Counted from the stretch's first letter, positions 9,770-32,532 are shown. The stretch: 64,000 bases of DNA from an uncultured Pseudomonadota bacterium (GCA_902793435.1 CADBDF010000003.1:26167-90166); one strand, 5' to 3'. Numbers and translations: made by a program. The notes: generated by a model not told the origin, from the letters alone.

Positions 9770-9779
9770 AAATAAACAA

Positions 9780-10698: not shown

Positions 10699-10704
10699 TG
10701 TGTA

Positions 10705-10787: not shown

Positions 10788-10797
10788 AAAAAACAAA

Positions 10798-10819
10798 ATC
10801 ACCTTTTGGTGATTTTTTT
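10798..10819 (+). terminator. hairpin plus T-run following B1
   Basis: atcacc tttt ggtgat then seven T. Same position relative to TGCCA as the tRNA-Glu terminator, but with a different, still complementary, stem sequence. Confidence 0.6.
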
Positions 10820-11030
10820 ATTTTGCTAAAACCTTTCACGAAGGATTTGAACCGGGATGGGTCAGAGCACCTGGCGCGGATACGCGCCACACGAAAACGA
10901 AGTTTTTGTGAAATATGGGTGCGCATGACCAATACGAGAATACACAATTAGAAAAATCATAAAAACGGAGTTTGTGTCCCCACGAGTTTTTATAGATTTT
11001 TATTATTGCGTATCGAAGAGGCGAGTGAAA

Positions 11031-11055
11031 AATCCGAGTGGGGCTGCCAAAATAA
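11031..11055 (+). repeat. displaced copy of the tRNA-Glu 3' end (att-type direct repeat)
   Basis: aatccgagtggggctgccaaaataa is identical to 9751-9775. It is followed by a hairpin (11060-11081) and A repeat copy 2, as after the intact tRNA. Confidence 0.85.
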
Positions 11056-11082
11056 CAAAACCGCATTTTTGCGGTTTTTTTG

Positions 11083-11156
11083 TTTGTTTTCCAATACTTT
11101 CATGAGTTCGTAAGTTAGGTGTTGAAAACAGACACCATTTCACACATTTACGAACT
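11083..11156 (+). repeat. A repeat copy 2
   Basis: Same leader and outer stem (11105-11115 / 11146-11156) as A1, but the inner stem is ggtgt/acacc instead of cggg/cccg. Confidence 0.8.
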
Positions 11157-15811: not shown

Positions 15812-15901
15812 GGATGGTTGGCAGAGCGGTCGAATGCGACGGTCTTGAAAACCGCTGACGGGGTAACTCGTCCGGGGGTTCGAATCCCTCACCATCCGCC
15901 A
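15812..15901 (+). tRNA. tRNA-Ser (anticodon UGA)
   Basis: 90 nt. Acceptor GGATGGT/ACCATCC, anticodon loop CTTGAAA, long variable arm (TGACGGGGTAACTCGTCC), T-loop TTCGAAT, encoded CCA. Closely parallels E. coli serT. Confidence 0.95.
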
Positions 15902-16183
15902 GTATTCTGGCATGTATGCCGATACAGATGAAACGCCCGCGGTTCTGCGGGATTTTTCATACATTGACTTCGGTATGGGCGAAAATTGCCCTTTTTTACG
16001 CCATAATATCCTGCTTCCTATACACCCCCCATTTTCCGATAGTCAATACCTTGAAAAATAGCCAGAAAACCCTATATAAACACCGTAATAAAATTATAAA
16101 ACACAGGAGAAAAAATCGCTTTTTTTCATTGAAAACACAAGGTTTTTGTATTACATTTTTCATGAAAATTTATGAGGACAATT

Positions 16184-16357
16184 ATGAAAGAAACAGTAAA
16201 AAATCAAATAAACATCAATAAGGTGGGTAAAAACTCTGTTGTCGCAAATGGTGATACTGCAGTTGCTATTGGTAAAACAGAAAAAAACATAAATAAAAAA
16301 TCTTTTTGGGCTTCGTTAATAGAGGCAGTATCACGAGTATTTAAAATATTTTGCTAA
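16184..16357 (+). CDS. small protein sharing an N-terminal motif with the downstream giant protein
   Basis: 57 aa from ATG 16184 (GAGG 8 nt upstream). KNSVVANGDTAVAIGK parallels QDSVVANGELAVAAGR of the next ORF. Stop lies 7 nt before that ORF. Confidence 0.55.
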   Translation: MKETVKNQININKVGKNSVVANGDTAVAIGKTEKNINKKSFWASLIEAVSRVFKIFC

Positions 16358-16364
16358 ATAAAAG

Positions 16365-19300
16365 GTGTGTAATTTGGCACTAGATAAAATCGAAAATCAC
16401 GCAGATGTTCTTCTATCTACCAAAAAGATACAAGATAGTGTAGTGGCCAATGGTGAACTGGCTGTTGCAGCAGGTCGCGATGTCAATATTTACGTACAAA
16501 TGCCGGCAAATCCGACCCCTGCAATCATGGAAGATTCGTCTTCAAGGGATTGTAAATTTAACAAAATTTTGCATAGGAATATAGATGTCGTAAAAGAATT
16601 GTTAAATACTGGTCAACCGGACAAAGCTTTGGATGAAATATTAAAAATTGAAACAATATATGAGGGCGAATTAAAGGAACCTGATGCAAAAAGACGTTTG
16701 TTACTTAATAAAGGGACTGCATTAATTCTATTAAATCGTCCATTAGAGGGTGCAAATTCTTATTTGGAGGGCTATTACTGTTCGCCGGACAATGAACTTT
16801 CTAACGCATTGCGTATAAAAGCATATTTTATCAAAAAAGATATTGCAGGACTAAAAAAAGCAATTTCTGAAGTTCCCGAAATTCATCGTACAAGCAGGGT
16901 AATCGCTGGACGTATACTTGAAGCAATTCAACTTGACATAAAAAACTTCCCCACAATGCCAGCAGAAATAAACGAAGTGTGTTTTGACGATGTTGCAAAC
17001 TGTCTGATAGCAAGCAAATTTTATTCTGTACGTGGAGATGAGACCAATGCCGCGAAATTTTTTAATCAAGCGAAAGATATAAATCCTGACGATTGGCAGA
17101 TTTTGGCTTGGGAAGGTACGCGATATATGGGAGATGAGCCACAAAAACAGCCCATAGGTGCGATTAGATCAGCCAAAGATTCACTAGAAAAAGCATGGAA
17201 TTTAATTAAAAATCAGACCAATGTACCGTTTGCCGAATTGTTATATATCCCCATAAACTTAGCTAGTGCGTACAGATTACTGAACATGCAAAAAGAGGAA
17301 CGCGACCTTATAGAAAATCTATATTCACGTTTCCCTGAAGATCCAGATGTATTGTTAAAAAAAATCCTTAACGCCGATGATTGTGCGGAAGCGGCACAAT
17401 TATCAGACAAACTTGATGTCAATAAAGGCTTTTATTATGCAGGATTGGCAGCGATATCATACATCAATAATAAGCAATATAATAAAGCATTATCTGTGTT
17501 ACAAAAAGCTCCGCACGACGCGAATTACGACCAATTAGAAATCGATTTAAGAACCTGCATATGTTACAAAGAGTTAAATAATATTACAGCGGTTGACAAT
17601 ATTATTAAAAAACAAAAATCGGTCGCTGCAAAGAAATTACTTATGCATATAAAAACTGGCAACGTGCGAGATTTAATTCAAGCACGCCGATTTCTGAAAC
17701 CCACAGATTGTGTATATATCAAAACAGAAATTGCGACAAGATTATATAAGGCACAATTATATACAGAAGCATCACCTGTGTACAAAGAAATAATCAAGAT
17801 TGTTGGTTTACACGATGTCATTTTATCACATTATTTAGATTGTTTACATAGGACATCTGATGTTTCGGGCATGTATAAAGTATTATCATCTGTTCCCAAT
17901 GAATACATTAATAATACTATATTGCAATATTGGGCTTTTTATCATGAGACTATGGGAGACAATGAAAAAGCCACATTATTTTTCAAAAAAGTATTCGACC
18001 AACAACCAGAAAATTCGAGAGTTGCAGTAAATCTGGCTATTATGTATCACCGGAACGATAATGAAGAAGCTTTGTTAAAACTATTGGATAAATTACCATC
18101 AAATTTAAATAAAATGTTTGGTGATGTCAAAGCTAAATGGCAGTTGCTTCACCTTATGTACGAACACAAGTTTGCAATGGAAACTCTCCCACAAAAAGCG
18201 TATGAATTAATAACTGAAAATCTTTATGATGAAGAATCTTGGAAAAACTATTTTACGTGGTTTATGACATGTTTAGCTGATTTCAAAATCGTAAACAATA
18301 AAACAGGTTTTATTTTGCACGACGAAGCAACCAATACCAACGAAATTTATATTATTGAAGATGACCCAAATATAAAAACCAACAAATTCTTTAATGTATT
18401 GCGAAGTTCCGATGTGTTCACAAAAAAATTAATGATGGCGGAAGAAAATTCCAATATCCAACTCGGACAAAATGGAATTGAATGCAAAGTTATTAATATT
18501 AACAATAAATACGTAACTGTAGGATGTATCATTCGCGACCAAATTTTTATACAATTTCCTGACTGTGATATAATTAGAATTGATGGGAAAACACCAGAAG
18601 AAGCCGTAGAAAAATTAAAACGACTGTTTAATTTTCAAAATCAGACACAGGATTTAATTAAAAATTATTATAAAGAAAAATATTTGCCAATATCCACGTT
18701 AGCAAATATGTTGGGAAAAGATGTAATAAGTCTAATGGAATTCCTTGCTACGGAAAAACTGATTGTATCGGAAGGGAGCGTAGTAGAGCAAAAGGATACC
18801 CAAAAACTGGTTAATAAACAAGCCGGATACATTATAGATGCGATTACTATTTTTAATGCATTTTGGTTCCATGTGGAGACCATGTTGGCAAATGTTGTTA
18901 AAGATAATCTTTACGTATCACAAAAAACCATAGATATTTTCAAATCGCTGAAAGAAGAGGAAATGCGATTCTTAAAAATGCGCGGTGGACGGCTTTTCAA
19001 AACTAATTCTGAAGACCAAAAATTGACATTTGCATCGCATGAAGACTTGAAAGACTATCAAAAAAATAAAATTAAAATGTTGGATGATATTCTTACATGG
19101 TTAGGTGAGAACGCAAAGATTATAATTCCATCTGGTGCATCAAAATTGTCTGACAACAAAGAACAGTTGCTTTCATTTTTTCAAGAAAAAGATTTAGAAA
19201 CAGCTTCTGTCATACGGTTAGCTAAGGATAAAAACTTAAACTTGTTGTCTGACGATTATATGCTGCGGGCAATGGCGAAAAAACAATTTGAAATAGATGG

Positions 19301-19721
19301 ACTATGGCTTCAAGGATTATTCATGTACAGCCCTTTTGCCAATAGTAATGAATATGTGGAATACGTTGTAAATTCTATAAAAAATAACCATAGCTTTATA
19401 AGTTTTAACTCTGCCAATCTATTTAAAATTTTTATCAAAGGGGGACCGGACATAAAAACTTTAGTAAACCAAATGAGAGCATGTTCATCAGAAAGCGCTA
19501 TAATAGTCGCAACAGAATTTTATAGTAAATTGATAACATTTGACAAAAACACACCACAAATTGCGTTTATGTTGATAGATGCTGTCTTGAATAGTGGCAC
19601 GCATACAGAATATAATATCAGATTAAGAGGCATGTTGGCAATTGCAAAGCACGATGCAATCTTTGACCGAGCACTACATGATTGGTGTACGGGACACTGT
19701 TTACCATATCCACAGGAATAA
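16365..19721 (+). CDS. 1118-aa TPR-repeat protein with a GreA/B C-terminal-like domain and a PIN-like domain
   Basis: TPR-like repeats over about residues 70-620 (e.g. ATLFFKKVFDQQPENSRVAVNLAIMY). Residues ~650-715 (EIYIIEDDPN...SSDVFTKKLMMAEENSNIQLGQNGIECKVININ) fit the GreA/B C-domain pattern. Residues ~815-1010 (GYIIDAITIFN...ETASVIRLAKDKNLNLLSDDYMLRAMA) look PIN-like. Start codon (GTG 16365 or TTG 16374) is uncertain. Confidence 0.7.
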   Translation: MCNLALDKIENHADVLLSTKKIQDSVVANGELAVAAGRDVNIYVQMPANPTPAIMEDSSSRDCKFNKILHRNIDVVKELLNTGQPDKALDEILKIETIYEGELKEPDAKRRLLLNKGTALILLNRPLEGANSYLEGYYCSPDNELSNALRIKAYFIKKDIAGLKKAISEVPEIHRTSRVIAGRILEAIQLDIKNFPTMPAEINEVCFDDVANCLIASKFYSVRGDETNAAKFFNQAKDINPDDWQILAWEGTRYMGDEPQKQPIGAIRSAKDSLEKAWNLIKNQTNVPFAELLYIPINLASAYRLLNMQKEERDLIENLYSRFPEDPDVLLKKILNADDCAEAAQLSDKLDVNKGFYYAGLAAISYINNKQYNKALSVLQKAPHDANYDQLEIDLRTCICYKELNNITAVDNIIKKQKSVAAKKLLMHIKTGNVRDLIQARRFLKPTDCVYIKTEIATRLYKAQLYTEASPVYKEIIKIVGLHDVILSHYLDCLHRTSDVSGMYKVLSSVPNEYINNTILQYWAFYHETMGDNEKATLFFKKVFDQQPENSRVAVNLAIMYHRNDNEEALLKLLDKLPSNLNKMFGDVKAKWQLLHLMYEHKFAMETLPQKAYELITENLYDEESWKNYFTWFMTCLADFKIVNNKTGFILHDEATNTNEIYIIEDDPNIKTNKFFNVLRSSDVFTKKLMMAEENSNIQLGQNGIECKVININNKYVTVGCIIRDQIFIQFPDCDIIRIDGKTPEEAVEKLKRLFNFQNQTQDLIKNYYKEKYLPISTLANMLGKDVISLMEFLATEKLIVSEGSVVEQKDTQKLVNKQAGYIIDAITIFNAFWFHVETMLANVVKDNLYVSQKTIDIFKSLKEEEMRFLKMRGGRLFKTNSEDQKLTFASHEDLKDYQKNKIKMLDDILTWLGENAKIIIPSGASKLSDNKEQLLSFFQEKDLETASVIRLAKDKNLNLLSDDYMLRAMAKKQFEIDGLWLQGLFMYSPFANSNEYVEYVVNSIKNNHSFISFNSANLFKIFIKGGPDIKTLVNQMRACSSESAIIVATEFYSKLITFDKNTPQIAFMLIDAVLNSGTHTEYNIRLRGMLAIAKHDAIFDRALHDWCTGHCLPYPQE

Positions 19722-19733
19722 TTGCTTTTTGAT

Positions 19734-21362
19734 TTAACATCCATAAAACGCAGATTCTTGTTTATCAAAATCTGCGTATTTTTGTGCGATACCGAACAAG
19801 GTTTGCAGGTTCACGTGTGCAGGTACTTCGCCTTCCAGTATGTCGCCAATTATTTTAGGTGACAGGTATGCCAGGTTCATGTATTTATATACCGTTCTAT
19901 CGGCACGATGTTCTGTGCGTTTAATCTGGTCAACCGGAACACCGGCTTCGTATTGCTTTTTATATTTCCATCCGAATGCCAGTGCCTTGGTCAATATCTG
20001 TGCGTTTTCTGTTTTTGTATGTATTGATACTTCGCCACCATCACATCGGTGGTTTATACAGGTTCGCGTATTCACATAGAACTGTGTTTCCACAACCGCA
20101 TATTTACCATCGTTGGTTATATACATATGCATAGGTTCTACTTTTGAATTTATGGTGTCTGTTTTGAATTGTTCCAGATAACCCATGTCGTCAATCTTGA
20201 TGAATATTGCCAGGGCATTTTTGTTAAACACTATTTTATCAACCATTTGTTGCATCAATTCGTCTGAATAACAAGTTTGTTTGAATTCTAATCGCTTGGC
20301 TTCCGGTATAGCAATCATATCAGAATCCAAGAATCTTTTTATCGTATCTGTAACAATCTGTTCCACATCGCCAGCCGGTAATGATATTTTATCGGCTTTG
20401 TAATAGCGGTATTTTTTCAATCTGTTATCTTTGTTGCTTTGTTGGTTCTTGAATATCTGGCCATCCGGTGTTTGTATCTTATTATGCAACAATGATTTAC
20501 CGATGGTGTAACCCGCATTTTTGTGATTGTTGCCATCGTGCAGTTTCTGTTGCACATCGTTAAATAATTTTTCATCAAGTATCGCTTCATGCAATCCGTT
20601 AAATGTCTCTTTGCTTCGCTTGTTTGCAATCTTGCCAATATATACCGGATTTTTCAGGATTCTGTCCAATGAACTGGTGGCTATGATTGTACCACCTTTT
20701 TGTTGGCCTTTGTTGGTTGTCCATGTCTTTCCGCGTATTCCCATATCAATCAGTCGCAAGCGGCAATCTGACATACCAGTACTTATCATATATGTATTAA
20801 ATATCCGGCGGACTGTTTCGGCTTCGGTTTCATTTACCACCAACTTCCCATCGATAACATCGTACCCAAGCGGTGGTATTCCACCAATCCACATCCCCTT
20901 TGCTTTTGTGGCACGGATTTTATCACGCACACGTTCCCCAGACACTTCGCGTTCAAATTCTGCGAACGATAGTAGCATGTTCAGGGTTAGTTTGCCCATG
21001 GCAGTGCTAGTATCGAATGATTGCGTTATGCTGACCAGATTGCAGTTATGTGGTTCAAAATCTTCCTTCATCATGCGTTTAAAGTCATATATGCTACGCG
21101 ACAATCTGTCGATTTTATAAACCAGAACACATTGTATTCGACCAGCTTTGATATCGGCCAGCATTTCCTGTAAACCTGGACGGGCCATCGTTCCGCCAGA
21201 AATCGCCGCATCACTGTAAGTCTTGTAATATTGCCAACCATTAAACGATTGGGAAGCAATATACGCTTTACAAGACTCTTCTTGGTTTTGCAGAGAATTA
21301 AACTCCTGTTCCAATCCATGTTCAGTTGATTTACGCGTATAAATAGCACATCTAATCGTCAT
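19734..21362 (-). CDS. large serine recombinase
   Basis: 542 aa. N-terminal resolvase catalytic domain (CAIYTRKSTEHGLEQEFNSLQNQ, VLVYKIDRLSRS), a recombinase domain (GGIPPLGYD) and a long C-terminal extension. Confidence 0.9.
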   Translation of the reverse strand: MTIRCAIYTRKSTEHGLEQEFNSLQNQEESCKAYIASQSFNGWQYYKTYSDAAISGGTMARPGLQEMLADIKAGRIQCVLVYKIDRLSRSIYDFKRMMKEDFEPHNCNLVSITQSFDTSTAMGKLTLNMLLSFAEFEREVSGERVRDKIRATKAKGMWIGGIPPLGYDVIDGKLVVNETEAETVRRIFNTYMISTGMSDCRLRLIDMGIRGKTWTTNKGQQKGGTIIATSSLDRILKNPVYIGKIANKRSKETFNGLHEAILDEKLFNDVQQKLHDGNNHKNAGYTIGKSLLHNKIQTPDGQIFKNQQSNKDNRLKKYRYYKADKISLPAGDVEQIVTDTIKRFLDSDMIAIPEAKRLEFKQTCYSDELMQQMVDKIVFNKNALAIFIKIDDMGYLEQFKTDTINSKVEPMHMYITNDGKYAVVETQFYVNTRTCINHRCDGGEVSIHTKTENAQILTKALAFGWKYKKQYEAGVPVDQIKRTEHRADRTVYKYMNLAYLSPKIIGDILEGEVPAHVNLQTLFGIAQKYADFDKQESAFYGC

Positions 21363-21792
21363 GTTTTTTCCTTTTGTTTATACCAAAGAAGAAATTACCA
21401 GACATTTTCATGCCTGCGATTTTAGTTGCAACTGCCGACAATGTTGAATATTTGTCACCGTTATATGAAAAACTGCCATCATCATTGACTAAGATGGTGT
21501 ATTTTATACCCTTGAAATATCGGGTTAAAATTGTGCCTGGGACAAAGTTATATTTATTTGGACATGCATGGTCTAAACATTGTTCTGGATTATCCTTGTA
21601 TTTTCGAATTTTTACCAAATATTTATGTTCAATTCGTAGGTTTAAGCGATCACATTGAATATAATACCAAAGCGACCGCAGTTGCCTTTTAAATGGATAT
21701 TGTGAGTATTTTGCCCATAATCGAACTCGTTCATCAAAAGACAATGCTTTCAACTCATCCATCGTCTTTGGCATGTTATCTTTATATGACAT
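21352..21792 (-). CDS. DUF2924-family protein (usual upstream partner of large serine recombinases)
   Basis: 146 aa. GTILTRYFKGIKYTILVNDDGSFSYNGDKYSTLSAVATKIAGMKMSGNFFFG matches the DUF2924 C-terminal pattern. Overlaps the recombinase gene by 11 nt. Confidence 0.7.
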   Translation of the reverse strand: MSYKDNMPKTMDELKALSFDERVRLWAKYSQYPFKRQLRSLWYYIQCDRLNLRIEHKYLVKIRKYKDNPEQCLDHACPNKYNFVPGTILTRYFKGIKYTILVNDDGSFSYNGDKYSTLSAVATKIAGMKMSGNFFFGINKRKKHDD

Positions 21793-21941
21793 ATCGGCTC
21801 CTTTATAACGTCACGCAATTACCGCTCTAAAGTTGCCGAAAGTCAAGTTAATAAGCCCCTTGTTTTTTATTTTACAAAAATATTTATGTATGATACTATA
21901 CAAGAAAGCGATAAAAATATTAATATAAAGGCTTTGACATT

Positions 21942-22814
21942 ATGGATTATGAAAATATTTTCAAGGATTTTTTGGATTTAATTTATCACAATGACATTTT
22001 GCCAAATGAAATTGTTTGTGTTTTAGAAAAATATAGCAAAAACAGAGATTTTCGGTTAATTTGTGATTTATTGTATTATAAAGAGAAGTATTGTAAAACT
22101 GCTGGCGATCCAAGGACACAACAATTTTATACGGAATTGACTATGCATGCTCGCGCTTTACAGGACATCAATATTTGGCGAGACGCAATGTCGTTAAATA
22201 ATTTAAGCTATTTGAAAGCCGCTCTTAATAATGACGCTCATAATGATACTCATAGGTCGGATCCTGCAATTATTAAACCGATGATGCAACAATTGATAAG
22301 GGCAGCCAACTTAAAACCTGATGGATATCTCATTAATAATATCGATAAAAAATATACGCAAAACACTACAAATCTAAACTCAGATAAAATACTTACACTA
22401 GATAATTTAAAAATTGGTGATGAAGTAGATCATCATTTTTTACGTGATCATTTTAAAATCAATATTCAACGAGGTATGCACTTTAAACAAAAGATAATTT
22501 TAATATCTAAATTTTCTGCTTATGCGGATGAAGAAAGAGACGGCATATTACATTATTTGGGACATAATATTGTAAACGATCATGGAGGTAAATTTAATCA
22601 AACACGAACCGGAGAGAATGAGAGATTTTGTGATGCGATTGATAATTTTAAAAAGGGCGGCCAGGTTTCGTATTTTAAAATTTTTCAAAAAAGAAACAAA
22701 TGGATGTACAAAGGAGAATACGCTCTGATAGATTATAATTATACAGGTTCTAAAAATCCAAATGATATAAATTCTGATAGAAAAGTATATGAATTCTTAT
22801 TACGAAAAAAATAG
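21942..22814 (+). CDS. hypothetical protein; C-terminal half possibly an SRA/PUA-like modified-base reader
   Basis: 290 aa. GILHYLGHNIVNDHGGKFNQTRTGENERFCDAIDNFKKGGQVSYFKIFQKRNKWMYKGEYALIDY loosely follows the Y.G.GG...Q.l..gN.al...g.pv.vf.....y.Y.G.Y pattern of SRA-type readers. Weak call. Confidence 0.3.
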   Translation: MDYENIFKDFLDLIYHNDILPNEIVCVLEKYSKNRDFRLICDLLYYKEKYCKTAGDPRTQQFYTELTMHARALQDINIWRDAMSLNNLSYLKAALNNDAHNDTHRSDPAIIKPMMQQLIRAANLKPDGYLINNIDKKYTQNTTNLNSDKILTLDNLKIGDEVDHHFLRDHFKINIQRGMHFKQKIILISKFSAYADEERDGILHYLGHNIVNDHGGKFNQTRTGENERFCDAIDNFKKGGQVSYFKIFQKRNKWMYKGEYALIDYNYTGSKNPNDINSDRKVYEFLLRKK

Positions 22815-22823
22815 GCAATTTGA

Positions 22824-24107
22824 ATGAAGTTGCAAGAAAAATTAAATAATATTTCAAAAACATCAAAATTATCTTTATTGAAAGACGGCCGGTCGGTTGA
22901 TTTGGATGAGTTTTGGACCACATTTATAGAACCTTTTCTTCCGCCCAAAAAAGCAGTTGAGGGTTGGCATAAAATTTTGAAGAAATATATAAACGAAAAA
23001 AATGCTATTTTTTCGATACGGAAGTTTGGTAGTTATCGTGATAACAAAACAAAAGATCGCAAAACGTTGAGGCGCGGGTTCCTTAACCTAACAAATCTTG
23101 GTATTAACGCATTTTTTATTGATAATTTTTTTACATCGTATTTCTTTTCAATGGCTTATGATGGTTATGTGCCTGATTATAATGATTTCAAAGAAATGAT
23201 GCTCTCTAGAAAATTTCCGTGTGGCTATATTGTTACCAAAACAGAAACTGCACTCGCCGCATTTCATAAAGGAAAAGATCCACGTATTCAATATAAAGGT
23301 TATAAAATAGCACATATTCATGACGCTGGTCGTGATTTTAATATATCAAATATCAAGACAGTTGGTGATTTTTGTAAATTGTTTTTCCCATTAGGAGAAT
23401 ATGATGATTGGAAAGCCATAAAAAAAGATAAAAATGGACCTTATCACTATAGAAATTTATCGATAAAAAAAGACGACCAAAAACTTGTAAAACAGTTTCT
23501 GGTTGCGCATTTTTTACGAACGGTTCATCCCATAAATTATTTCTTGGTTCCTAAACAATTTTGTATTTCCTTTGTTAATGATAAGGGTGAAACCAAATAC
23601 GAAATTGGCGAATACGAACCCCTTATTAAATATGTAAGACAAAAAATCAAACAACGATACGGTGCAATTTATAATCAATATCTTGCATTAATTAAACGTA
23701 TCGATGACGAACAAACAGAGCAAGAAAACATTATTATAAATGCGGTTTATGGTTTAAATGGTTTTAGAAAAAACAAATCTAAAAAAACAACAAAAAAAAT
23801 TAAAACATTGAAAAAATCTAGCGGTTCATCAGGCATAGGGAAAATTGTACGAGAAACACTAATTCCTGGTCTGAACAAAATTCCGTCGGCAGAGATCAAA
23901 AAACTGCAAACTAAACAGTATTCCAAGAATACTTTTGATATAAATTATCCTCTTTTATCTAAAAATAGATTTGATAGCAATGGTCGTCCACGTTATTACG
24001 CTACACCAATACGAATTAATGGTGCTGATTGGTATGTTTGTCAGGAATGGTATGCCAGATGTGAACCCAAATTAAGGGTATGGTTAGCATTACATAACAT
24101 AGGTTAA
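22824..24107 (+). CDS. hypothetical protein; possible His-Me finger (HNH-like) nuclease
   Basis: 427 aa, starting 10 nt after the previous gene. KIAHIHDAGRDFNISNIKTV and LVAHFLRTVHPINYFLVP resemble H-N-H cores lacking Cys ligands. Has a Lys-rich linker and a C-terminal RPRYYATPIRINGADWYVCQEWY module. Weak call. Confidence 0.3.
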   Translation: MKLQEKLNNISKTSKLSLLKDGRSVDLDEFWTTFIEPFLPPKKAVEGWHKILKKYINEKNAIFSIRKFGSYRDNKTKDRKTLRRGFLNLTNLGINAFFIDNFFTSYFFSMAYDGYVPDYNDFKEMMLSRKFPCGYIVTKTETALAAFHKGKDPRIQYKGYKIAHIHDAGRDFNISNIKTVGDFCKLFFPLGEYDDWKAIKKDKNGPYHYRNLSIKKDDQKLVKQFLVAHFLRTVHPINYFLVPKQFCISFVNDKGETKYEIGEYEPLIKYVRQKIKQRYGAIYNQYLALIKRIDDEQTEQENIIINAVYGLNGFRKNKSKKTTKKIKTLKKSSGSSGIGKIVRETLIPGLNKIPSAEIKKLQTKQYSKNTFDINYPLLSKNRFDSNGRPRYYATPIRINGADWYVCQEWYARCEPKLRVWLALHNIG

Positions 24108-24121
24108 CTAATATAATATTA

Positions 24122-24694
24122 TCAGTTGTATTCGCTTGCTAATTTGGTGAAAAAGCATTCGTCGTGGTATATGCCGTCGGGCGTCAATAAATATTGGCGG
24201 TTTATTCCATCAAGGTGATAGCCTGATTTAATTATAGAATTATATGAACGGATGTTGTCTTTGATACATTGGCGGCATATTCTGTTCGCCCCCAGTTGTT
24301 CAAAGGCGATTTTTTCTATTGTTCTGTGGATTTCTTGATTAAACCCGTTTCCCCAGTATTTTCGCGCCAACCAAACAGATGAACATTCAAGTGTTTTATT
24401 ATCCGGACAATAATATATTCTTTGATAGCCAATTAGTTCATTATTAAAAAACACAAACCAATCTATCCCCCTGTTTTGACAACGATTATGATAATATTGC
24501 ATTACATGCAATGTGTCTTCTTGTGATGTTGGTAAAATACTTTCCAGTCTTGAAGAATAAATAAAATCATCTGGATTTTCATTTTTTAATACGTTCCACA
24601 CTAATAGTGCATTTTCTTCATTTGGTTCAAGAATACGCATTTCCAAACGCTCTGTTTTTATATTATGACCAAATAACTCAAAAAACTTTTCCAT
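24122..24694 (-). CDS. GNAT-family N-acetyltransferase (RimJ/RimL-like)
   Basis: 190 aa. WGNGFNQEIHRTIEKIAFEQLGANRICRQCIKDNIRSYNSIIKSGY fits the acetyl-CoA-binding core of the Acetyltransf_3 type. Confidence 0.7.
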   Translation of the reverse strand: MEKFFELFGHNIKTERLEMRILEPNEENALLVWNVLKNENPDDFIYSSRLESILPTSQEDTLHVMQYYHNRCQNRGIDWFVFFNNELIGYQRIYYCPDNKTLECSSVWLARKYWGNGFNQEIHRTIEKIAFEQLGANRICRQCIKDNIRSYNSIIKSGYHLDGINRQYLLTPDGIYHDECFFTKLASEYN

Positions 24695-24705
24695 TTGTGT
24701 TTCCT

Positions 24706-25047
24706 CTATTTTTCAGGAATATCTCTTAATGTATATTCTGGTATATTATTGCCACATTTTTCTTTTAAAATAGCACGAAAATCTGTTGCAAATCTGTCTG
24801 GAATATCTCTATTTACGTTTTCATCATCTGGCATTTCATCAGAAAAAATGTAATCCACTACGCATTTACAAGTTTTTTTGTTGTCTGCCAATTTTATGTC
24901 TTTGAATTCTTGTGCCGCATGTTTTACACAATCTTGGTATTCTTGTTTAGCTATATCATCAATCATTTTATTCCAGGCGTTTTTAGTATCGTTACTGTTA
25001 TCACAAGCACATATAAACAAAGATAATATTATAAATATTTTTTTCAT
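24706..25047 (-). CDS. small secreted protein or possible lipoprotein
   Basis: 113 aa with N-terminus MKKIFIILSLFICACDN. Lies 11 nt upstream of the GNAT gene. Confidence 0.5.
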   Translation of the reverse strand: MKKIFIILSLFICACDNSNDTKNAWNKMIDDIAKQEYQDCVKHAAQEFKDIKLADNKKTCKCVVDYIFSDEMPDDENVNRDIPDRFATDFRAILKEKCGNNIPEYTLRDIPEK

Positions 25048-25082
25048 AACACCCCCTTTTTATTCGGCAATATACCATAAAT

Positions 25083-26552
25083 TTATTTGTTCGTATAGGT
25101 AAATATTACATCCAACAATCGAACCATTGCCAAGGTATCTTGCCCGCAATATTCACGCAGATTTTTCATCATTTCTTCTGTTTCCTGTGGCGTTTGATTT
25201 CTGTTCATAAAATCTAAAAATTGGCTGCTGGCTTCTGTTCCGTTATGAATCCCCAGGGTTTCATAGGACAATTCCGGAACAAACGTGGGCAATGTTTTTT
25301 TGATTGATACACTACCGTTTTGACAAGGACAATACAGACCACGATTTTTAAATGGTTCTTCTAAATCTAAAATGCGTTCATTTATTGATGATAGTTTTTT
25401 GGCAAACTCTGGAAAATCAAAAGCCATTTCACAGTTACGGCCTTTTTCAAATGTTTTGTGATAGACGACTACTGAACCCGTATCACCGATTACATCACAT
25501 AACTTTTTCAATAGTCCTGGTCTAGGGTCTGTTTCTGGGTTGTCGTGTAAATATTCATAATGTTCCAATTTGCCGCCAGGCGTCCTTTGCACATGTAATG
25601 AAAATTGAAAACAAATTTGTTGATAGGCGTGCGAATTATCAAATATCGGCACCGCCGACATAATTGTTTCATAATCAAGAAAGTATAAAGGCCATTGCAA
25701 ATTATTCGTAAATTGTTTCAAGATGTTTAGATTGATTACATCTATATTATCTAAAAACGCTTCTATATCCCCGGAATGCTGTTGTTTATAGTAAATATCG
25801 ACAGGAACATTATGCAAATCAGCACCATATTTTGCATAAATTTCGTCTGCCAATTTTCCTTTGAATGCATCAAAAACTGAATACTGTGGCAAATCTTTCC
25901 AACAATGACATTTATATTCGCATTTATAGAATTTATTGTTACATTTCGTCTTAGAAATAGCGATGCCAAGTTCTGGACCAGACAGAAATGCGCGTATACG
26001 ATTTATTTCCGATTGCACCGTTTCCATATCTTGCATTTTACCGGCTACATCGTGCAAAGCGAACAACTGTGCCAAATCTAAATCACCATGGCGAATATAT
26101 TCTTTATTTAGTGTCATTACAAAGCAATTACGAACCTTGATTCCACAGTGGTTTAATACATACCTCTGAAAAGAAACATCTAAATAGTGATATTCATGTG
26201 GTTCTGGATTCGATTTTACCTCTATAATATCCCATGTTCCGTCATTGTTGTTTTGTAAAATATCAACAGCACAATATTCATCAGTATCGGTGCAAAATGT
26301 CGCTTCATAGATGTATGACGCATTTTGTGTGATGGCTTTTTGGGTTTGTTCTATGGCTTCTGGTTCCCAAGGCTTTGCAGTGATGCGAACGCCTCCAGGG
26401 AATCTGTCACATGCTAATTCACCAACAGCAGTTCCAGCATCCAATATTGCTTGATTTTTGTCGGATTCTATATCTTTACGATATTTTTTGAACCACAACG
26501 CATTCGGGCATTTAATTCCAGTTACATAATCAGACTTTGATATTTTTATCAT
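25083..26552 (-). CDS. DUF2779-family protein (Cas4/PD-(D/E)xK-like N-terminal nuclease plus C-terminal domain)
   Basis: 489 aa. The N-terminus MIKISKSDYVTGIKCPNALWFKKY is the characteristic DUF2779 start. DIIEVKS fits a PD-(D/E)xK core. Cys cluster CNNKFYKCEYKCHC. Confidence 0.6.
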   Translation of the reverse strand: MIKISKSDYVTGIKCPNALWFKKYRKDIESDKNQAILDAGTAVGELACDRFPGGVRITAKPWEPEAIEQTQKAITQNASYIYEATFCTDTDEYCAVDILQNNNDGTWDIIEVKSNPEPHEYHYLDVSFQRYVLNHCGIKVRNCFVMTLNKEYIRHGDLDLAQLFALHDVAGKMQDMETVQSEINRIRAFLSGPELGIAISKTKCNNKFYKCEYKCHCWKDLPQYSVFDAFKGKLADEIYAKYGADLHNVPVDIYYKQQHSGDIEAFLDNIDVINLNILKQFTNNLQWPLYFLDYETIMSAVPIFDNSHAYQQICFQFSLHVQRTPGGKLEHYEYLHDNPETDPRPGLLKKLCDVIGDTGSVVVYHKTFEKGRNCEMAFDFPEFAKKLSSINERILDLEEPFKNRGLYCPCQNGSVSIKKTLPTFVPELSYETLGIHNGTEASSQFLDFMNRNQTPQETEEMMKNLREYCGQDTLAMVRLLDVIFTYTNK

Positions 26553-26563
26553 AATGATTCCGT

Positions 26564-27250
26564 TTATTTTATCTCCAGTTTAATACCTGTTATTCCTTTT
26601 TCACGCCAATTTCCTAAATACCCGGTGTGCAAATTACCGCTTAAACTGGAAGTTGGTTTAAAATTGTTAACTTGCCATACATGTTGGGTTGCTGATTTAT
26701 TCGTATAAAACAAAGTAACAAAAACCGTGCATATGGAGGTGTCGCGCAGATGTTTTTCAAATTCTTTACCAGAACATTCGCGACCGTGTAAAAAGTATTT
26801 TTTGTCTAGAGCTGTTGATTCATGAACATTTTTTATACTGGCCGTTTTTGTTGTGTGTGTTCGTTTTTTTGCATTTTTGATGCTTTCTGCCTTGTATACA
26901 AAAAAACTTTCATCTATTTTGCCATCATCGTATTTTCTGTGGCATTCTTCACATAAAAAATGAAAATTTGCAAGATCCTTTGAAAAATTTACAAAAGATT
27001 CTTCGAATCTATCTAAATCGACATGACAAATATCTCCTTCTTTTGAATATGTTGATTCTTCAAAAAAGTTTCTTACTAAATCCTTTCTTTCAAAGCCATG
27101 TTTGTGTGCGGATTGAATTTCTTTTTCTTTTGTACCACAACATGCACAAATACCAGATTTATATTTTTGTGTTAAATCTCGTGTTTTATTACGTGCATAT
27201 CCATCAAAAAATTTTTTAAACGTTTTATAATCACCTACGAACATATTCAT
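26564..27250 (-). CDS. HNH-motif endonuclease-like protein with an unknown C-terminal domain
   Basis: 228 aa with ICACCGTKEKEIQSAHKHG and FHFLCEECHRKYD (CxxC...H...CxxCH). Confidence 0.55.
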   Translation of the reverse strand: MNMFVGDYKTFKKFFDGYARNKTRDLTQKYKSGICACCGTKEKEIQSAHKHGFERKDLVRNFFEESTYSKEGDICHVDLDRFEESFVNFSKDLANFHFLCEECHRKYDDGKIDESFFVYKAESIKNAKKRTHTTKTASIKNVHESTALDKKYFLHGRECSGKEFEKHLRDTSICTVFVTLFYTNKSATQHVWQVNNFKPTSSLSGNLHTGYLGNWREKGITGIKLEIK

Positions 27251-27273
27251 TATGCATCCTTTTATTTAAAAAA

Positions 27274-27444
27274 CTAATTTCCTATTTGTCCTGTTTCATT
27301 ATCATACAATACTATGCGGCCGAAACTTGCGCAATTTGTTTCTTCTAATTTACGCAATTGCTCTTTGGCTGCGTCATACGAAAAATAAATTTCAGGTAAA
27401 ACACAGTTGTTAAATATAATTTTCCATGCTGTACAAGTTGCCAT
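27274..27444 (-). CDS. 56-aa hypothetical protein (below the ORF-track cutoff)
   Basis: My translation is MATCTAWKIIFNNCVLPEIYFSYDAAKEQLRKLEETNCASFGRIVLYDNETGQIGN. AAGGGGA lies 6 nt before the ATG. About 23 nt gaps to both neighbours. Confidence 0.45.
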   Translation of the reverse strand: MATCTAWKIIFNNCVLPEIYFSYDAAKEQLRKLEETNCASFGRIVLYDNETGQIGN

Positions 27445-27467
27445 TGTTTTCCCCTTTGGTTGTTAAT

Positions 27468-28915
27468 TTAAAAACCTATTTTTGTTTGTTTTTTATGTAA
27501 ATCTTTGACCTGTTGTTCCTGACGTAATCTGGATAACAGTTCAGATTTATCTGTAATTCCTAGTAAATCTGCTTGTTTTTTTACAACAGCAAAATCACCA
27601 GGTGCTAAATTCGTTAAATCAGCAATTTCTTCCTTGGAAATTTGTTGATTAAAAAAATCTTGAAAAGCCATAATGACTTGGTCAGGTTTTAAGAATTCGT
27701 ATTTAACCTTGAACGAAAACCTGCGAAGCGCGGCTTTATCTATATTGTCCATCAAATTAGTCGTGCAAACAAACGGATAGTCCGCATTTTCCATCTGAGC
27801 CAACATTTCGTTTACAGAACAGACTTCCCAAGAACGCGCTGCTCGGGTTCTGTCCATAAGGAAACTGTCTGCTTCATCGAAAACCAGCATTACTTTTTTT
27901 GCACGTGCTTCCGCAAACGCACGGGCAATATTCTTTTCTGTTTGACCTACATACATACCGTTTATATCGCTGGCACGTTTTTTTATTATGTTTATGCCCA
28001 ACAAATCAGCCAGATGTTCACAAAATGCGGTTTTCCCTGTTCCTGGTTTGCCGTATAACAAAATGTTTATACCAGTTTTTTTGAGTTAATACCACCCGTT
28101 AAAATATCTGATATCTTGTCAAAATCATCGACCATATAATCAAAATTGTCGCGTTTTAAATTCGCGGATAAAGAGGCACCAATCAAGACATCGCGAACGT
28201 CCTTGCACTTGTCAAAATTCATGGTTAGTAAATTCAAAAACATTGAACTGAATGAATTATCACCATAGCGATGTTTTTATATCCCCGATTCTGCCAATAC
28301 GCCAGTTTGAGACATGATTTCTTTGACTTTTTCCGACGGTATTTTACATATTGCAGATACAAAATCTGCATTTATATCGTCCATAAAATCATTACTGATT
28401 CCATCATTGAAACAACAAAGTAATCTGCGTAATTGAGAATTTTTTTTAATAAACACCAAAAATTGCAATAAAATTCGACTATCGTTCGGCAAATCAAAAG
28501 TATCACAAATTATGGTAAAATTTTTATCAAAATCTGGATTGGTAATATCGGTGTCAAAATCTGATTTGCGGACATCAAAAATATTAGACACACGTTCATA
28601 CAAAGCATCTTCGGCTAGTAAACTGTTCCGACATAATTTGCCATTTAGTAAATTTATAAGGAATTCAGCCTTTTCGTTTGCAGAAACACGTTTTTCACCA
28701 CTATTAATCAGGTCACGCAAATTAAACCCAAACAAATCGGTCGAATGCCTTGACAGATGATGAAAGAACATATCTGTATCATCTGGTTCGTATTCGCTAC
28801 TCGTTACATTTTTCAAATAATGCATCGCCAGTTGTCTGTCTTTTATATTCATATTTACGCCTTTTTTCGGGGTTCGTGGGTAATATAAATACCATGCTGG
28901 ACAAAAACGGTCCAT
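27468..28915 (-). pseudogene. AAA+ ATPase gene interrupted by one nonsense codon and one frameshift
   Basis: The 28277-28915 ORF ends at TAA (28277-28279), but the same frame stays open for 69 more codons. At the A7 run (28076-28082) adding one A joins ...TGGINSKK to TGINILLYGKPGTGKT (Walker A), with VMLVFDEAD (Walker B) and the rest of an AAA+ core following. Confidence 0.7.
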
Positions 28916-28926
28916 TTTTTCCTTGC

Positions 28927-28946
28927 GTATAGAAAAATTTTGATAC
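28927..28946. promoter_or_regulatory. imperfect palindrome between the AAA+ operon and the WYL remnant (candidate operator)
   Basis: gtatagaaaaattttgatac (GTAT-N12-ATAC). A related site, gtataaaaaaattttttgatag, lies at 31080-31101 upstream of the intact WYL gene. Confidence 0.45.
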
Positions 28947-28989
28947 TGTTATAATAAATCAATATAAAAAGCCTAAATCGGGAGTAAAT

Positions 28990-29133
28990 ATGCCAGAATC
29001 ACGCAATAGTTATAAAAAATCAGATATTCATTTAGAACTTATCAATGAATTACGCAAAAGATATATGACACTTACAGATATTCGTGACTTTTTATTTGTT
29101 AATATTTTAAATTTGGCATTGTTTTTTTATTAA
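28990..29133 (+). pseudogene. truncated N-terminal remnant of a WYL-type regulator
   Basis: MPESRNSYKKSDIHLELINELRKRYMTLTDIRDFL aligns with MAEARDNYKKTDLKLELINELRSRSMTRNDIKTFL of the 31125 gene (about 20 of 35 identical). Similarity is lost after ~35 codons, where the convergent 29099-29833 gene begins. Confidence 0.65.
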
Positions 29134-29833
29134 GTTCAACTTTATGTGACAATAATTTATCAACTGTTGATAACATGTCCATTTTTATGACCTTTATACA
29201 ATTTTTACAAAAGTATGTTTTATACATATCGATACTTTTGGGGTCATTTGAATCTTTTGTGTTTACAACTATTGTTATTTCATAACCAGGTATTTTCAAA
29301 CAATATGCATATTTTCCAGCAAATCTACCTGGGGACATACCGGTTGCATAATTTGATGGGTGTTCTACCTCTTTTTTACAAATTATTGGCAAAAACAAGT
29401 CTGGTTGTATTTGTACTTTATCTGTTAATATATCGAATGCAATTTGTTGATATTTTTTTAAATCGACTCTTTTAGAAGAAATGCCACAACGCCATAAAAC
29501 AGACACAAAGAATTTATAAAGTTTTTCATAATCAAATTTATCGGACTGAATATTATATATATTAAATCCATCGCTTATATCTGTTGATGCATTTGGTATA
29601 ATATCGTAAAAGAATTTTTTGGCATAATTATCAAAAACACCGAGTTTGTTATCACAATCTGCACATAAAAGACATTCTTTATAACCATTTTGTGCATTAG
29701 GGTTCATATCAAATTTTGTGGTTGCATTTATCCCAACCATTCTACCTTGGTTTGTTGCATGTAAACACTTTGGTATAATGTGTGATTGTACCAATTGTTT
29801 TTCTTCGCCACAAAATTTACAAATTCCTAACAT
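29099..29833 (-). CDS. hypothetical protein with N-terminal CxxC...SHIIPK motif
   Basis: 244 aa. MLGICKFCGEEKQLVQSHIIPKCL plus a second Cys pair (CLLCADCDNKLG). No family assigned. Confidence 0.5.
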   Translation of the reverse strand: MLGICKFCGEEKQLVQSHIIPKCLHATNQGRMVGINATTKFDMNPNAQNGYKECLLCADCDNKLGVFDNYAKKFFYDIIPNASTDISDGFNIYNIQSDKFDYEKLYKFFVSVLWRCGISSKRVDLKKYQQIAFDILTDKVQIQPDLFLPIICKKEVEHPSNYATGMSPGRFAGKYAYCLKIPGYEITIVVNTKDSNDPKSIDMYKTYFCKNCIKVIKMDMLSTVDKLLSHKVELNKKTMPNLKY

Positions 29834-30245
29834 TTTGGTATCTGCCTTGCCTAAATAACATGATATTTCAAATTAAAAAAGAAAGTCAAATATAATAGTG
29901 GCAAATTCCCTGTTAATATAAAATAATTCTCTGCTTTTTGAATAGGGAATTTTGAATAAAAGTGGCGTGTTACAAGCCTTGCAGTAGCATGATTTACGGC
30001 AAAACAACATATTTTTCATAAAAATTCCCTGTAAATACCCTGTAAATTGGATATCTAACACCGTCAAATATTACAACACCGCCATAAAAATTAAATGCCC
30101 GCTTGGGCATTTTATTTTTATCGTGATTGGCATTGGGTTGGACACTGCAACAAAGTTGCCGGTTGGGTTCGACAACAAGTAGATTTCACAAATGTTAATG
30201 CTGTGAAATCGTTACGGTTGCAACGCGGGCACAAAGAGCCAAGAT

Positions 30246-30265
30246 AATCCCTCACCATCCGCCAG
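30246..30265 (+). repeat. right-hand direct repeat of the tRNA-Ser 3' end
   Basis: aatccctcaccatccgccag is identical to 15883-15902. Confidence 0.9.
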
Positions 30266-30352
30266 ATTAAAATTTAAAAAAATTGCCAAGGGTGTTTTTT
30301 TATTTTATTTTTCTTTCTGTTTTATTATCATATACCGGGCAAAGGAGATTTT

Positions 30353-30958
30353 ATGGAATATCTTGATATTTATGACGAATATATGAATAAAATCGGCACC
30401 GAGACCCGAGACATAGTTCATCAAAATGGTTTATGGCACAAGACTGTTCATTGTTGGATGTATGACGATGATGGAAATGTATATTTTCAAATTCGTGCAG
30501 ATTCTGGTAAGCTATATACTACCGCATCTGGGCATGTATTGGCGGGGGAAACAGTGCGAGATGCTTTCCGTCGCGAAATATTCGAAGAAATCGGTATTAA
30601 CACCGATGCATCAAATGCTGTCGCATTAGATATCGTATTTTGGCGTCAAGATAAACCACAAAAAAACTGGCACGATCGTGCATTTGCGCATATTTATGCA
30701 AATAAACTGCCGATTGACTTTACAGATTTTCATTTTCAGCCCGATGAAGTTGCTGGATTGGTTCGTATAAACGCAAAAGATTGTCTTGATTTGTTAATGG
30801 ATAAACATACTTCTGTCCGTGCAATAAAAATTACAGCCGATAAATCAACAGATATCGATATTACAAAAAACGATTTTCTGGCTGCGTCTAATGAAACACC
30901 TATTGTAAAATATGGTTTTGTATTGCAAAGCATCATCCAACAAAATTCGCATATTTAG
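30353..30958 (+). CDS. NUDIX hydrolase
   Basis: 201 aa with the Nudix box GHVLAGETVRDAFRREIFEEIGI. Confidence 0.85.
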   Translation: MEYLDIYDEYMNKIGTETRDIVHQNGLWHKTVHCWMYDDDGNVYFQIRADSGKLYTTASGHVLAGETVRDAFRREIFEEIGINTDASNAVALDIVFWRQDKPQKNWHDRAFAHIYANKLPIDFTDFHFQPDEVAGLVRINAKDCLDLLMDKHTSVRAIKITADKSTDIDITKNDFLAASNETPIVKYGFVLQSIIQQNSHI

Positions 30959-31079
30959 GTATGGAAATTTGTGCAACAGAATTATAGTCCGCCAGAAAAA
31001 TCAAATGTCCTTTTGGGGCATTTTTTTGTTTTATTATTTTTGAATTTATTTGGACAAAATTGGTCCAGATACAACTTGT

Positions 31080-31101
31080 GTATAAAAAAATTTTTTGATA
31101 G
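31080..31101. promoter_or_regulatory. AT-rich near-palindrome upstream of the WYL gene (candidate operator)
   Basis: gtataaaaaaattttttgatag, related to 28927-28946. Confidence 0.4.
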
Positions 31102-31124
31102 CATATCTTTTAAAAGAGGCAATT

Positions 31125-32186: not shown

Positions 32187-32532
32187 TCCGCATAAAGCGG
32201 ACTATTTTTTATCAGGATTCAATGGGAGTTGTATTCGGGGCCAAAACCTTAAAAAGCCTTTACAAAAAAGAATCCCTATAATTTGGTAGTCAAAGCATAC
32301 TTACTTTGTCCATTAATCATTATTTCATAATTCTGTATGGGATTCTGTAAGACTGTTTTCGTATATTTTTATCGTGATTGTGTTTATTTTCTTGGCAACA
32401 TCTGCATCAGTTTTAGTTTTGGCAAAATCATTTAATTTTATACGTAGCCTTTCAGTCAATATTGATACATCGCCATCAACAAACATGCGAATATTAAATT
32501 CCCCAGATTCAATTGATGGAATAATTTTTGTT

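Follow-up and report, generated by a model that had tools for sequence, protein, structure and literature searches.

When an exact 20-bp repeat of a tRNA 3′ end brackets 14.4 kb of DNA whose only recombinase is a large serine recombinase (LSR), what produced the repeat, and where does the inserted element end? The question is raised by a tRNA-Ser(UGA) locus in an uncultured Pseudomonadota bacterium (GCA_902793435.1), within a 64,000-nucleotide stretch of DNA (CADBDF010000003.1:26167-90166), hereafter the window, whose numbering is used throughout. The original prediction took positions 15883-30265 as a single acquired island and offered two ways of reconciling the repeat with the recombinase, namely that a tyrosine integrase had been lost or that the repeat stems from an earlier element in which the LSR element is nested. 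The comparisons described below instead point to a stack of three elements that would have accreted at the tRNA-Ser(UGA) 3′ end, consisting of an LSR-inserted island, a separate unit carrying the second 20-mer and a NUDIX cassette, and this reading is given a probability of about 0.75. The coordinates of all features are collected in Table 1.

The repeat is as first described. There are only two exact matches to AATCCCTCACCATCCGCCAG in the whole genome (898 kb in 15 contigs), the second 14.4 kb downstream of the first; the window holds no further copy with up to two mismatches, and none of 100 shuffles contained any match. Since the tRNA-Ser gene ends at 15901, the first copy spans T-loop A58 to one base beyond the CCA. 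The A+T-richness that had been judged by eye is also borne out by composition. The G+C content of 15902-30084 is 0.338, compared with 0.389 genome-wide, which places the interval among the lowest 0.1% when 702 windows of 14.2 kb are ranked. The tRNA-Ser(tga) gene is kept in 39 of 41 relatives. The genomes that hold homologous loci are recorded as Candidatus Enterousia or as alphaproteobacteria, and were assembled from gut metagenomes of animals and humans; one of them, G009, is a Candidatus Enterousia species of the same genus. In most relatives lgt lies directly upstream of this tRNA gene on the same strand (loci L026, L036, L083, L088 and others). In the window (15812-33360), G009 and G007, the tRNA gene and the array that follows it have the reverse orientation with respect to lgt, giving the order tRNA(+)…lgt(−).

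The LSR contains both the catalytic domain and the Recombinase domain (PF07508) by which such enzymes are recognized. Residues 3-140 align with the catalytic domain of TP901-1 integrase (3BVP, E=3.5e-25), including the YTRxST motif, and residues 164-321, in the Recombinase domain, align with A118 integrase (4KIS); the closest solved relatives are the TP901-1, SPbeta and A118 integrases. The best NCBIfam match is CcrB (E=1.6e-39), but its 136 bits against a cut-off of 900, like the scores for CcrC (92.9 bits, cut-off 900) and CcrA (91 bits, cut-off 700), fall so far short that the LSR is not a Ccr. Homologues of the overlapping DUF2924 gene adjoin the LSR in nearly all related loci. The window DUF2924 protein has a weak RAMA match in Pfam, and a partial match of DUF2924 to the RAMA DNA-binding domain has been described (PMC11342252). 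A C-terminal stretch is conserved in the LSR family (…WKY..YE……YKYLNLAYLSP.II.DIL.G).

Association with tRNA genes is a feature of the LSR family and not of this locus alone. LSR homologues are present in 64 of the 151 genomes of the family, and a tRNA gene in the same orientation lies 176-3836 bp from the LSR 3′ end in 53 of 62 loci, six of the nine others being cut by a contig end. A second set of 80 loci, which overlaps the first, has the tRNA arrangement in 62, with 12 cut. Linkage of this kind is expected by chance in about 10% of cases, an estimate based on 45 tRNA calls per 898 kb. The targets include tRNA-Ser (tga, gga, cga), Pro, Tyr, Lys, Val, Leu, Gln and Met, and a maximum-likelihood tree of 62 LSRs requires only seven changes of target amino acid, a number that none of 500 shuffles reached (mean 13.5, minimum 11). 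The target tRNA thus appears to track the LSR clade, and the window LSR is sister to a tRNA-Ser(tga)-linked LSR of another genus (support 97/91). A 14-nt match of a tRNA-Arg end within the LSR gene of G054 was treated as chance. Several public records that contain such alphaproteobacterial contigs bear the titles Muribaculaceae, Bacteroides fragilis, Oscillospiraceae or Clostridia (L142-L148, L166, L185), probably through labelling or binning errors.

The ends of the islands locate the junctions. In 17 distinct islands (4.9-17.4 kb), a tandem CCCTGT(A/T)AAT..CCCTG motif lies 36-70 nt from a 6-9-bp core that repeats exactly the final bases of the neighbouring tRNA. Aligned with the right end of the G101 island, window positions 29881-30084 show 95.6% identity over 204 nt, and no homology extends past the core. 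The right end shared by G101, G147 and G091 likewise stops at …ATTACAAC followed by TCCGCCA, or at …GCAAC followed by TCCACCA, beyond which the flanks are unrelated. Toward G009, identity over 29903-30272 is 80.6%. The CCCTGT(A/T)AAT copies in the window form an inverted pair (29909-29975) and a tandem pair (30028-30048), and may be where the DUF2924 partner or a regulator binds. The sequence that follows the core at 30085 (TAAAAATTAAATGCCCGCTTGGGCATTTT…) directly follows an intact tRNA-Ser in G015 and G023; those loci represent the empty site that the original prediction proposed to look for in relatives. For tRNA-Pro islands, several empty-site flags are ambiguous, as the terminator brought by the element is similar to the native one.

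These junctions suggest that the 14.2-kb island (15902-30084) was integrated by the LSR, together with its DUF2924 partner, at the extreme 3′ end of the tRNA gene. The LSR would recombine a site on the element with the tRNA end, leaving products that share a 6-9-bp core, here CCGCCA (tRNA positions 71-72, the discriminator base and CCA). The element would supply a few bases and a new terminator, so the tRNA would stay intact. The expectation that LSRs do not generate long direct repeats therefore stands, since the LSR junctions share only 6-9 bp, whereas the proposed island end at 30265 does not: the island ends at 30084, or probably at 30994 for the present recombinase. By the Islander scheme, the intact tRNA gene and a downstream tRNA fragment bracket the LSR island with 6 bp (30079-30084) and the separate unit with 20 bp, and no tyrosine integrase is on board.

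An initial reading had the LSR attP carrying the 20-mer, so that the whole of 15903-30245 would be a single LSR element with 20 bp of tRNA in its attP and the 20-mer as its common core. Such an element would account for the G009 island at tRNA-Ser(tga), which is 17.6 kb long and has the same 20-mer pair and the same placement of LSR and DUF2924 around a different cargo, and for the same arrangement at L097 and L110. That reading was dropped because the right ends of G101, G147 and G091 carry a 6-7-bp core and no module of the kind found in the 181-bp unit. It is also very improbable on wider grounds. The core is followed directly by flank or terminator, and not by a module, in most of the 17 mapped islands, and, judged against G101, the conserved right end extends no farther than 30084. 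Units follow the LSR junction in the window, G009, L097, L110 and the tRNA-Pro islands L072 and L078; in L111, however, the unit lies between the tRNA and the island, and G006 carries a unit with no LSR match (the LSR search took in G006 and left out G007, G015 and G016).

The second 20-mer instead belongs to a gene-less unit of 181 bp made up of a terminator (T1), a type-1 module and the 20-mer itself. T1 directly follows intact tRNA-Ser in G015 and G023, and units are also found behind tRNA-Ser in G006, G007, G015 and G016, the last having two near-identical 178-bp units in tandem. Similar units lie behind 13 of the 45 ARAGORN tRNA calls in the genome (one call, tRNA-Asp atc, looks spurious), at distances of 105-231 bp behind eleven tRNA genes, 1280 bp behind tRNA-Glu and farther as well for tRNA-Ser(tga); units of the 20-mer type are thus present behind about one-third of tRNA genes, with no linked recombinase. 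The tRNA copies in them usually start at T-loop A58 and are preceded by a terminator and one of at least three module types, and the tRNA part of each unit matches the tRNA in front of that unit. Examples in this genome (G000) are C1:116291-116560, C6:49851-50125 and C4:22790-23058, and window positions 9695-11100. The unit may already have been behind the tRNA, or may have arrived independently, with the LSR island placed between the two. The suggestion that the repeat stems from a separate element is thus retained as regards separateness, with the LSR island lying between tRNA and unit; it is modified in that the unit is gene-less and could be earlier or independent.

The type-1 module reads GGTTCGAMAACAAGTAG, a hairpin, CGTTACGGTTGCCCCGCAG, a second hairpin and CGAGGGAAT (30123-30245), with a G+C content of 44%. 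A strict regular expression finds eight copies, and nhmmer gives 33 matches, of which about 20 are unique. Stem 1 (30182-30190/30202-30210) has double compensatory changes in eight of its nine pairs across 15 copies, and is the only stem recovered by RNAalifold. Stem 2 was found by eye from complementary variation (GGC/GCC, GGTGGC/GCCACC, CGGC/GCCG), its variable length causing misalignment. An Rfam scan of 29800-31100 gave chance-level matches only, with no family for the module. Module and 20-mer together were rejected as a tRNA-like or tmRNA-like gene, as no 5′ acceptor strand or T-stem partner is visible by eye and ARAGORN calls nothing there. In comparison with integrons and clusters of attC sites lacking integron-integrases (CALIN), no IntI-type gene lies near the unit, and the module hairpin covaries.

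A unit of this kind might never have been mobile, being either a product of local duplication or a functional small-RNA gene with a tRNA-like 3′ part. The unit contains no genes, the G016 pair could be read as a duplication, and Egan and Landy are said to have described, in 1978, 178-bp repeats behind Escherichia coli tyrT that each end in the last 19 bases of the tRNA. The compensatory changes in stem 1 of the G+C-rich module include G-U-type pairs on the plus strand, and therefore suggest RNA or single-strand structure. Such an origin is nevertheless unlikely, given that the same module families occur behind different tRNAs, each with that tRNA's own 3′ part, that presence at the same tRNA varies among relatives, and that a strong terminator separates tRNA and module, which has no Rfam match. 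If the unit belongs to an uncharacterized recombination or RNA system, the structured module of about 130 nt with its covarying hairpins may be a folded single-strand or RNA component that directs recombination.

The other explanation offered at the outset, a single 14.4-kb island placed by a tyrosine integrase whose crossover in the T loop made the 20-bp repeat and which was later lost, with the LSR as cargo or a later arrival, is extremely improbable. A repeat from T loop to 3′ end is the classical tyrosine-integrase signature (Williams 2002, as cited in PMC4383910), and two of the four tyrosine recombinases of the genome are P4-like integrases (G000 C11:1916-3337 and C5:48489-49712), one adjoining tRNA-Arg(tct). 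All four, including two Xer-like proteins, are on other contigs, however, and the tRNA-Ser interval has no PF00589 match, in keeping with the original observation that the LSR is its only recombinase. No tyrosine recombinase was found inside the roughly 60 LSR islands fetched, in tblastn searches with the genome's own four proteins and a PF00589 search of 49 genomes, so repeated loss of a tyrosine integrase is not credible. Where Xer-like genes occur near LSR islands, they always lie 5′ to the tRNA. The tyrosine-integrase islands mapped in the family, five in number and located at tRNA-Met and tRNA-Asn (L134-L141), have exact repeats of 37-48 bp, longer if mismatches are allowed, that start in the anticodon stem-loop, and their A+T-rich arms carry tttgctacc repeats and no module. 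These repeats and arms also rule out the idea that the modules are P arms of the family's P4-like integrases. Units of the 20-bp type lie without cargo behind many tRNAs, and the internal junction at 30079-30084 separates island from unit. Because the 20-mer units differ from both LSR and tyrosine-integrase junctions, they appear to represent a third kind of junction.

The island itself is composite. Sliding identity comparison with the two LSR-island lineages, clade I and clade II, changes abruptly within the LSR gene. To the left of about 21200 (from 19700; LSR codons ~55-542), identity is 55-78% to clade I and 40-65% to clade II, locally 79-80% near 20900; to the right (as far as 21800; the first ~55 LSR codons and DUF2924), it is 82-92% to clade II and 34-64% to clade I. 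The window DUF2924 copy shares 89-94% identity with those of clade II. The left end adjoining the tRNA is of clade-I type, and the P arm at 30084 is of clade-II type. The window island is therefore a chimera of two LSR-island lineages, in which clade I contributed the left end, the TPR-PIN gene and the LSR body, and clade II the start of the LSR gene (~55 codons), DUF2924, the rest of the cargo and the 30084 P arm. A likely origin would be homologous recombination between the conserved 5′ ends of the LSR genes of two tandem islands. The sequence TCTGGC.TGT.TG is common to the left ends of the window and G045 islands, and G006 has a remnant of this left end behind its unit.

Comparison with related islands supports horizontal acquisition of the island, as had been proposed. 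Apart from lgt, sequence shared by the window and G009 islands is confined to four stretches: the tRNA, the gene for DUF2924, the beginning of the LSR gene and the final 370 bp. Between species, parts of the islands show 87-96% identity, whereas the adjacent lgt is far more divergent (~65% at the DNA level and ~60% in protein), and interspecies transfer is therefore recent. The cargo of the G009 island (L035, G009:C17 1130-18734) comprises TIR/SEFIR, two glycosyltransferases, a reverse transcriptase, a terminase-large-like protein, DUF5681, a ParB-N6/N4 methylase and AAA_15 and AAA_14 ATPases, a mix that resembles a phage satellite.

The third element, the NUDIX cassette, appears to have LSR-type ends and encodes no recombinase. 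It ends with a clade-I-type P arm (30955-30988, with CAGAAT at 30977-30982), a third copy of the core, CCGCCA (30989-30994), and G at 30995, the junction reading GGTATGGAAATTTGTGCAACAGAATTATAGT followed by CCGCCA. This P arm is identical at 26 of 40 positions to that of the G045 island, whose LSR is the closest homologue of the window LSR, as against 10 of 40 for the junction at 30084. The cassette is 93% identical in G007 (L002, G007:C1), where it is also flanked by CCGCCAG; the lgt proteins of the two genomes are ~60% identical. The G007 copy is preceded by a remnant of a different tRNA-like 3′ end (TTCGAATATCTTCTGACCCGCCAG).

The half-sites allow the crossover to be predicted. The clade-I dyad, CAGAAT-N14-ATTCTG, is formed by the NUDIX arm and the window left end, and the clade-II dyad is AATATTAC-N10-GTAATATT. 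In silico, both are centred on the first CC of CCGCCA (tRNA positions 71-72), and this CC is the predicted 2-bp crossover, with the inverted half-site motifs symmetric around it. The cognate site pair of the present LSR would be 15896-15909 with 30977-30994, bounding a composite of 15.09 kb, and the putative attP would read …CAGAATTATAGT-CCGCCA-GTATTCTGG…. If the LSR still excises, the excised unit is most likely 15902-30994, as the matching P arm is at the end of the NUDIX cassette. Predicted products of this 15.09-kb excision are attB-a, tRNA…CCATCCGCCA joined to GAAAAATCAAATG, and attP-a, …CAGAATTATAGTCCGCCAGTATTCTGGCATG…; those of a 14.18-kb excision would be attB-b, tRNA…CCGCCA joined to TAAAAATTAAATGCCC, and attP-b, …ATTACAACACCGCCAGTATTCTGG…. 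A looser attP pattern gave seven matches in 299 family genomes and none in controls. One match is the tRNA itself; the remaining six come from five genomes and represent P arm-TCCGCCAG-P′ arm junctions of tandem arrays. Those in G003 and G014 lie within arrays behind tRNA-Ser(gga), where some elements have no LSR or fragments only.

The island could also be an immobile relic, inherited vertically in a lineage that includes G009, its cargo exchanged by homologous recombination and its LSR inactive on the present ends. The mismatched arms, with a clade-I LSR beside a clade-II P arm at 30084, would fit such a history, as would the decayed AAA ATPase gene, the LSR genes with stops or reduced to fragments in several relatives and the tRNA…lgt arrangement common to the window, G009 and G007. 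On the other side are the intact LSR open reading frame (ORF) and its catalytic motif, which aligns with TP901-1 integrase, the cognate-type arm at 30955-30994, and the 87-96% identity to islands in species with more divergent core genes, which indicates recent transfer. A relic is a possibility to be entertained, if a doubtful one, and it bears on present activity alone, being compatible with the account given here of how the island arrived.

Several observations weigh against the stacked reading or parts of it. No Pfam Zn_ribbon_recom match was obtained for the LSR, and the usual cysteine pairs are not visible by eye after the Recombinase domain. Mapped right ends represent 17 of 75 distinct loci, those in which the right end falls within the DNA examined, and the CCCTGT motif, 36-70 nt from the core, is outside a normal LSR site (~50 bp). 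The tracking of target by clade could in part be due to resident islands having been inherited vertically. Between the window and G045, the clade-I P′ arms show only loose similarity (10 of 30 positions, ungapped), and the exact clade-II attP pattern had no matches in metagenome contigs or in viral contigs. The chromosomal P-core-P′ junctions fit tandem integration and are no proof of current activity.

The remaining genes of the island are largely those anticipated, with recombinase, ATPase, nuclease and TPR-PIN genes all present; the ATPase gene turns out to be a pseudogene. Its damage was read from a three-frame translation, and the C-terminal piece has matches to PF00004 and phrog_10401 that begin only at the Walker A motif. 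A paralogous locus on another contig (C10:28635-30683) covers ~2 kb, or roughly 680 codons, and its ATPase part shows 66% identity; with its one stop and one frameshift, the island pseudogene is ~200 codons shorter. The 290- and 427-residue cargo proteins have no matches in Pfam, PHROG, PADLOC or NCBIfam. The label of defence island is plausible from the gene types. It is unproven because PADLOC gave no complete system, only single partial matches to an IetA-like ATPase (the pseudogene), the Cas4 domain of the DUF2779 nuclease and, weakly, LmuC. The PIN-TPR-GreABC domain is above the Pfam cut-off, that defence system itself being predicted only.

Table 1. Features of the tRNA-Ser(UGA) locus, in window coordinates
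Feature	Position	Strand	Basis or details
tRNA-Ser(UGA) gene, predicted integration target	15812-15901	+	ARAGORN tRNA-Ser(tga)
20-mer copy 1, AATCCCTCACCATCCGCCAG	15883-15902	+	T-loop A58 to tRNA 3′ end plus one base
LSR core copy 1, CCGCCA (tRNA positions 71-76)	15896-15901	+	Predicted crossover at first CC; junction comparison in 17 islands, dyad geometry
Island left end, clade-I-type P′ arm (GTATTCTGGCATG…), ATTCTG at 15904-15909, putative replacement tRNA terminator ~15933-15958	15902-15958	+	
TPR protein, 1118 aa, PIN domain of TPR-GreAB-C-PIN type	16365-19721	+	PF20698 42.9 bits (cut-off 27.8) and TPR families
LSR, 542 aa, ORF intact	19734-21362	−	PF00239 E=3e-37, PF07508 E=5e-14
Chimera breakpoint between two island lineages	21150-21250		Sliding identity
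DUF2924 (RAMA-like DNA-binding) putative partner	21352-21792	−	PF11149 E=6.5e-19; overlaps LSR start by 11 nt
Two co-oriented cargo genes, 290 and 427 aa	21942-24107	+	No family match
GNAT acetyltransferase, 113-aa ORF, DUF2779/Cas4-like nuclease (25083-26552), 228-aa protein with weak HNH matches	24122-27250	−	
AAA+ ATPase pseudogene	27468-28915	−	In-frame TAA near 28277, frameshift in A-run near 28070
244-aa protein (phrog_19960, function unknown) and 64-aa ORF at conserved right end	29099-30067	−	
Right end, clade-II type, CCCTGT(A/T)AAT repeats and P arm with AATATTAC at 30067-30074	29909-30078	+	
LSR core copy 2, CCGCCA, right junction of clade-II-derived part	30079-30084	+	Reads …ATTACAACA followed by CCGCCA
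Gene-less unit	30085-30265	+	Terminator T1 ~30085-30122, type-1 module ~30123-30245, 20-mer copy 2
20-mer copy 2, AATCCCTCACCATCCGCCAG	30246-30265	+	End of 181-bp unit
NUDIX cassette, 730 bp	30266-30995	+	ORF 30353-30958; PF00293; no recombinase

Among known systems, the closest in enzymology are the large serine integrases of phages and integrative and conjugative elements (ICEs), including TP901-1, A118, SPbeta SprA, Bxb1 and phiC31. The window LSR shares their catalytic and Recombinase domains and their size (542 aa), and the window system resembles theirs in its short shared core, inverted half-sites around a dinucleotide and single element-encoded enzyme. However, it targets the last 6-9 bp of a tRNA gene and not a site inside a protein-coding gene, and it differs in lacking the zinc-ribbon Pfam match, in its constant DUF2924 partner and in the CCCTGT motif 36-70 nt from the core. 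In SCCmec, one of the staphylococcal cassette chromosome (SCC) elements, CcrA/CcrB/CcrC likewise integrate at the 3′ end of a housekeeping gene (rlmH) without inactivating it. SCC elements restore the rlmH 3′ end, and they are known in tandem and composite arrays and as recombinase-less relatives. The window system differs from SCCmec in its single recombinase with DUF2924, its tRNA target, its alphaproteobacterial host and a CcrB score far below the cut-off.

Islander or P4-type islands, true examples of which occur in the same genomes, also combine a tRNA gene, an island, a downstream tRNA fragment and a restored tRNA; here, in contrast, the recombinase family differs, the core is 6-9 bp and not 37-48 bp, and the crossover is predicted at the acceptor end and not in the anticodon or T loop. 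The accretion model of ICESt1/ICESt3 involves cis-mobilizable elements (CIMEs), which lack a recombinase, retain both att arms and are stacked beside an autonomous element. The NUDIX cassette, a 3-kb element in G003 and the P-core-P′ junctions are CIME-like in this sense, although the window system is based on a serine recombinase and has no conjugation genes. In mobile elements of Wolbachia, another alphaproteobacterial lineage, a DUF2924 gene lies immediately upstream of a recombinase gene (PMC10299305); tRNA targeting is not reported for those elements, and any function of the partner is putative in both lineages.

Previous work has placed tRNA targeting with the other recombinase family. 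In 2015, only tyrosine integrases were known to target tRNA genes, and serine recombinases were not known to do so (PMC4383910). According to Guédon et al. (2017, PMC5704250), elements with serine recombinases have very short flanking repeats and disrupt the genes that they target. The word tRNA is absent from a survey of LSRs (Durrant et al. 2022, PMC10083194), and the TIGER/Islander announcement of 2025 has no cross-tabulation of integrase type against tRNA targets (PMC12424338). Neither this LSR family nor any serine integrase directed at tRNA ends was found described in the literature covered; a report may exist outside it.

The more interesting outcomes are the tRNA-end-specific LSR family and the structured 20-mer units. 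It is proposed only tentatively, and as a somewhat doubtful combination, that an LSR family with DUF2924 is specialized on the last bases of tRNAs, so far in Enterousia-like gut alphaproteobacteria, and that the 20-mer unit represents an uncharacterized recombination or RNA system. For the reading of genomes, the two copies of a clean, long direct repeat at a tRNA can enclose an element whose own ends lie elsewhere. Islander-type finders would miss this LSR family because they require a tyrosine integrase and a long fragment, while only a 6-9-bp fragment is present. The family would offer a natural series of related serine integrases with different, very short, highly conserved attB sites and a constant small, putatively DNA-binding partner, of interest for LSR site choice, directionality and integration tools. 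If the account is correct, tRNA targeting has evolved in serine integrases too, with short natural attB sites in conserved tRNA genes, and the LSR family may explain the recombinase-less look of the gene arrays behind tRNAs in these tiny genomes.

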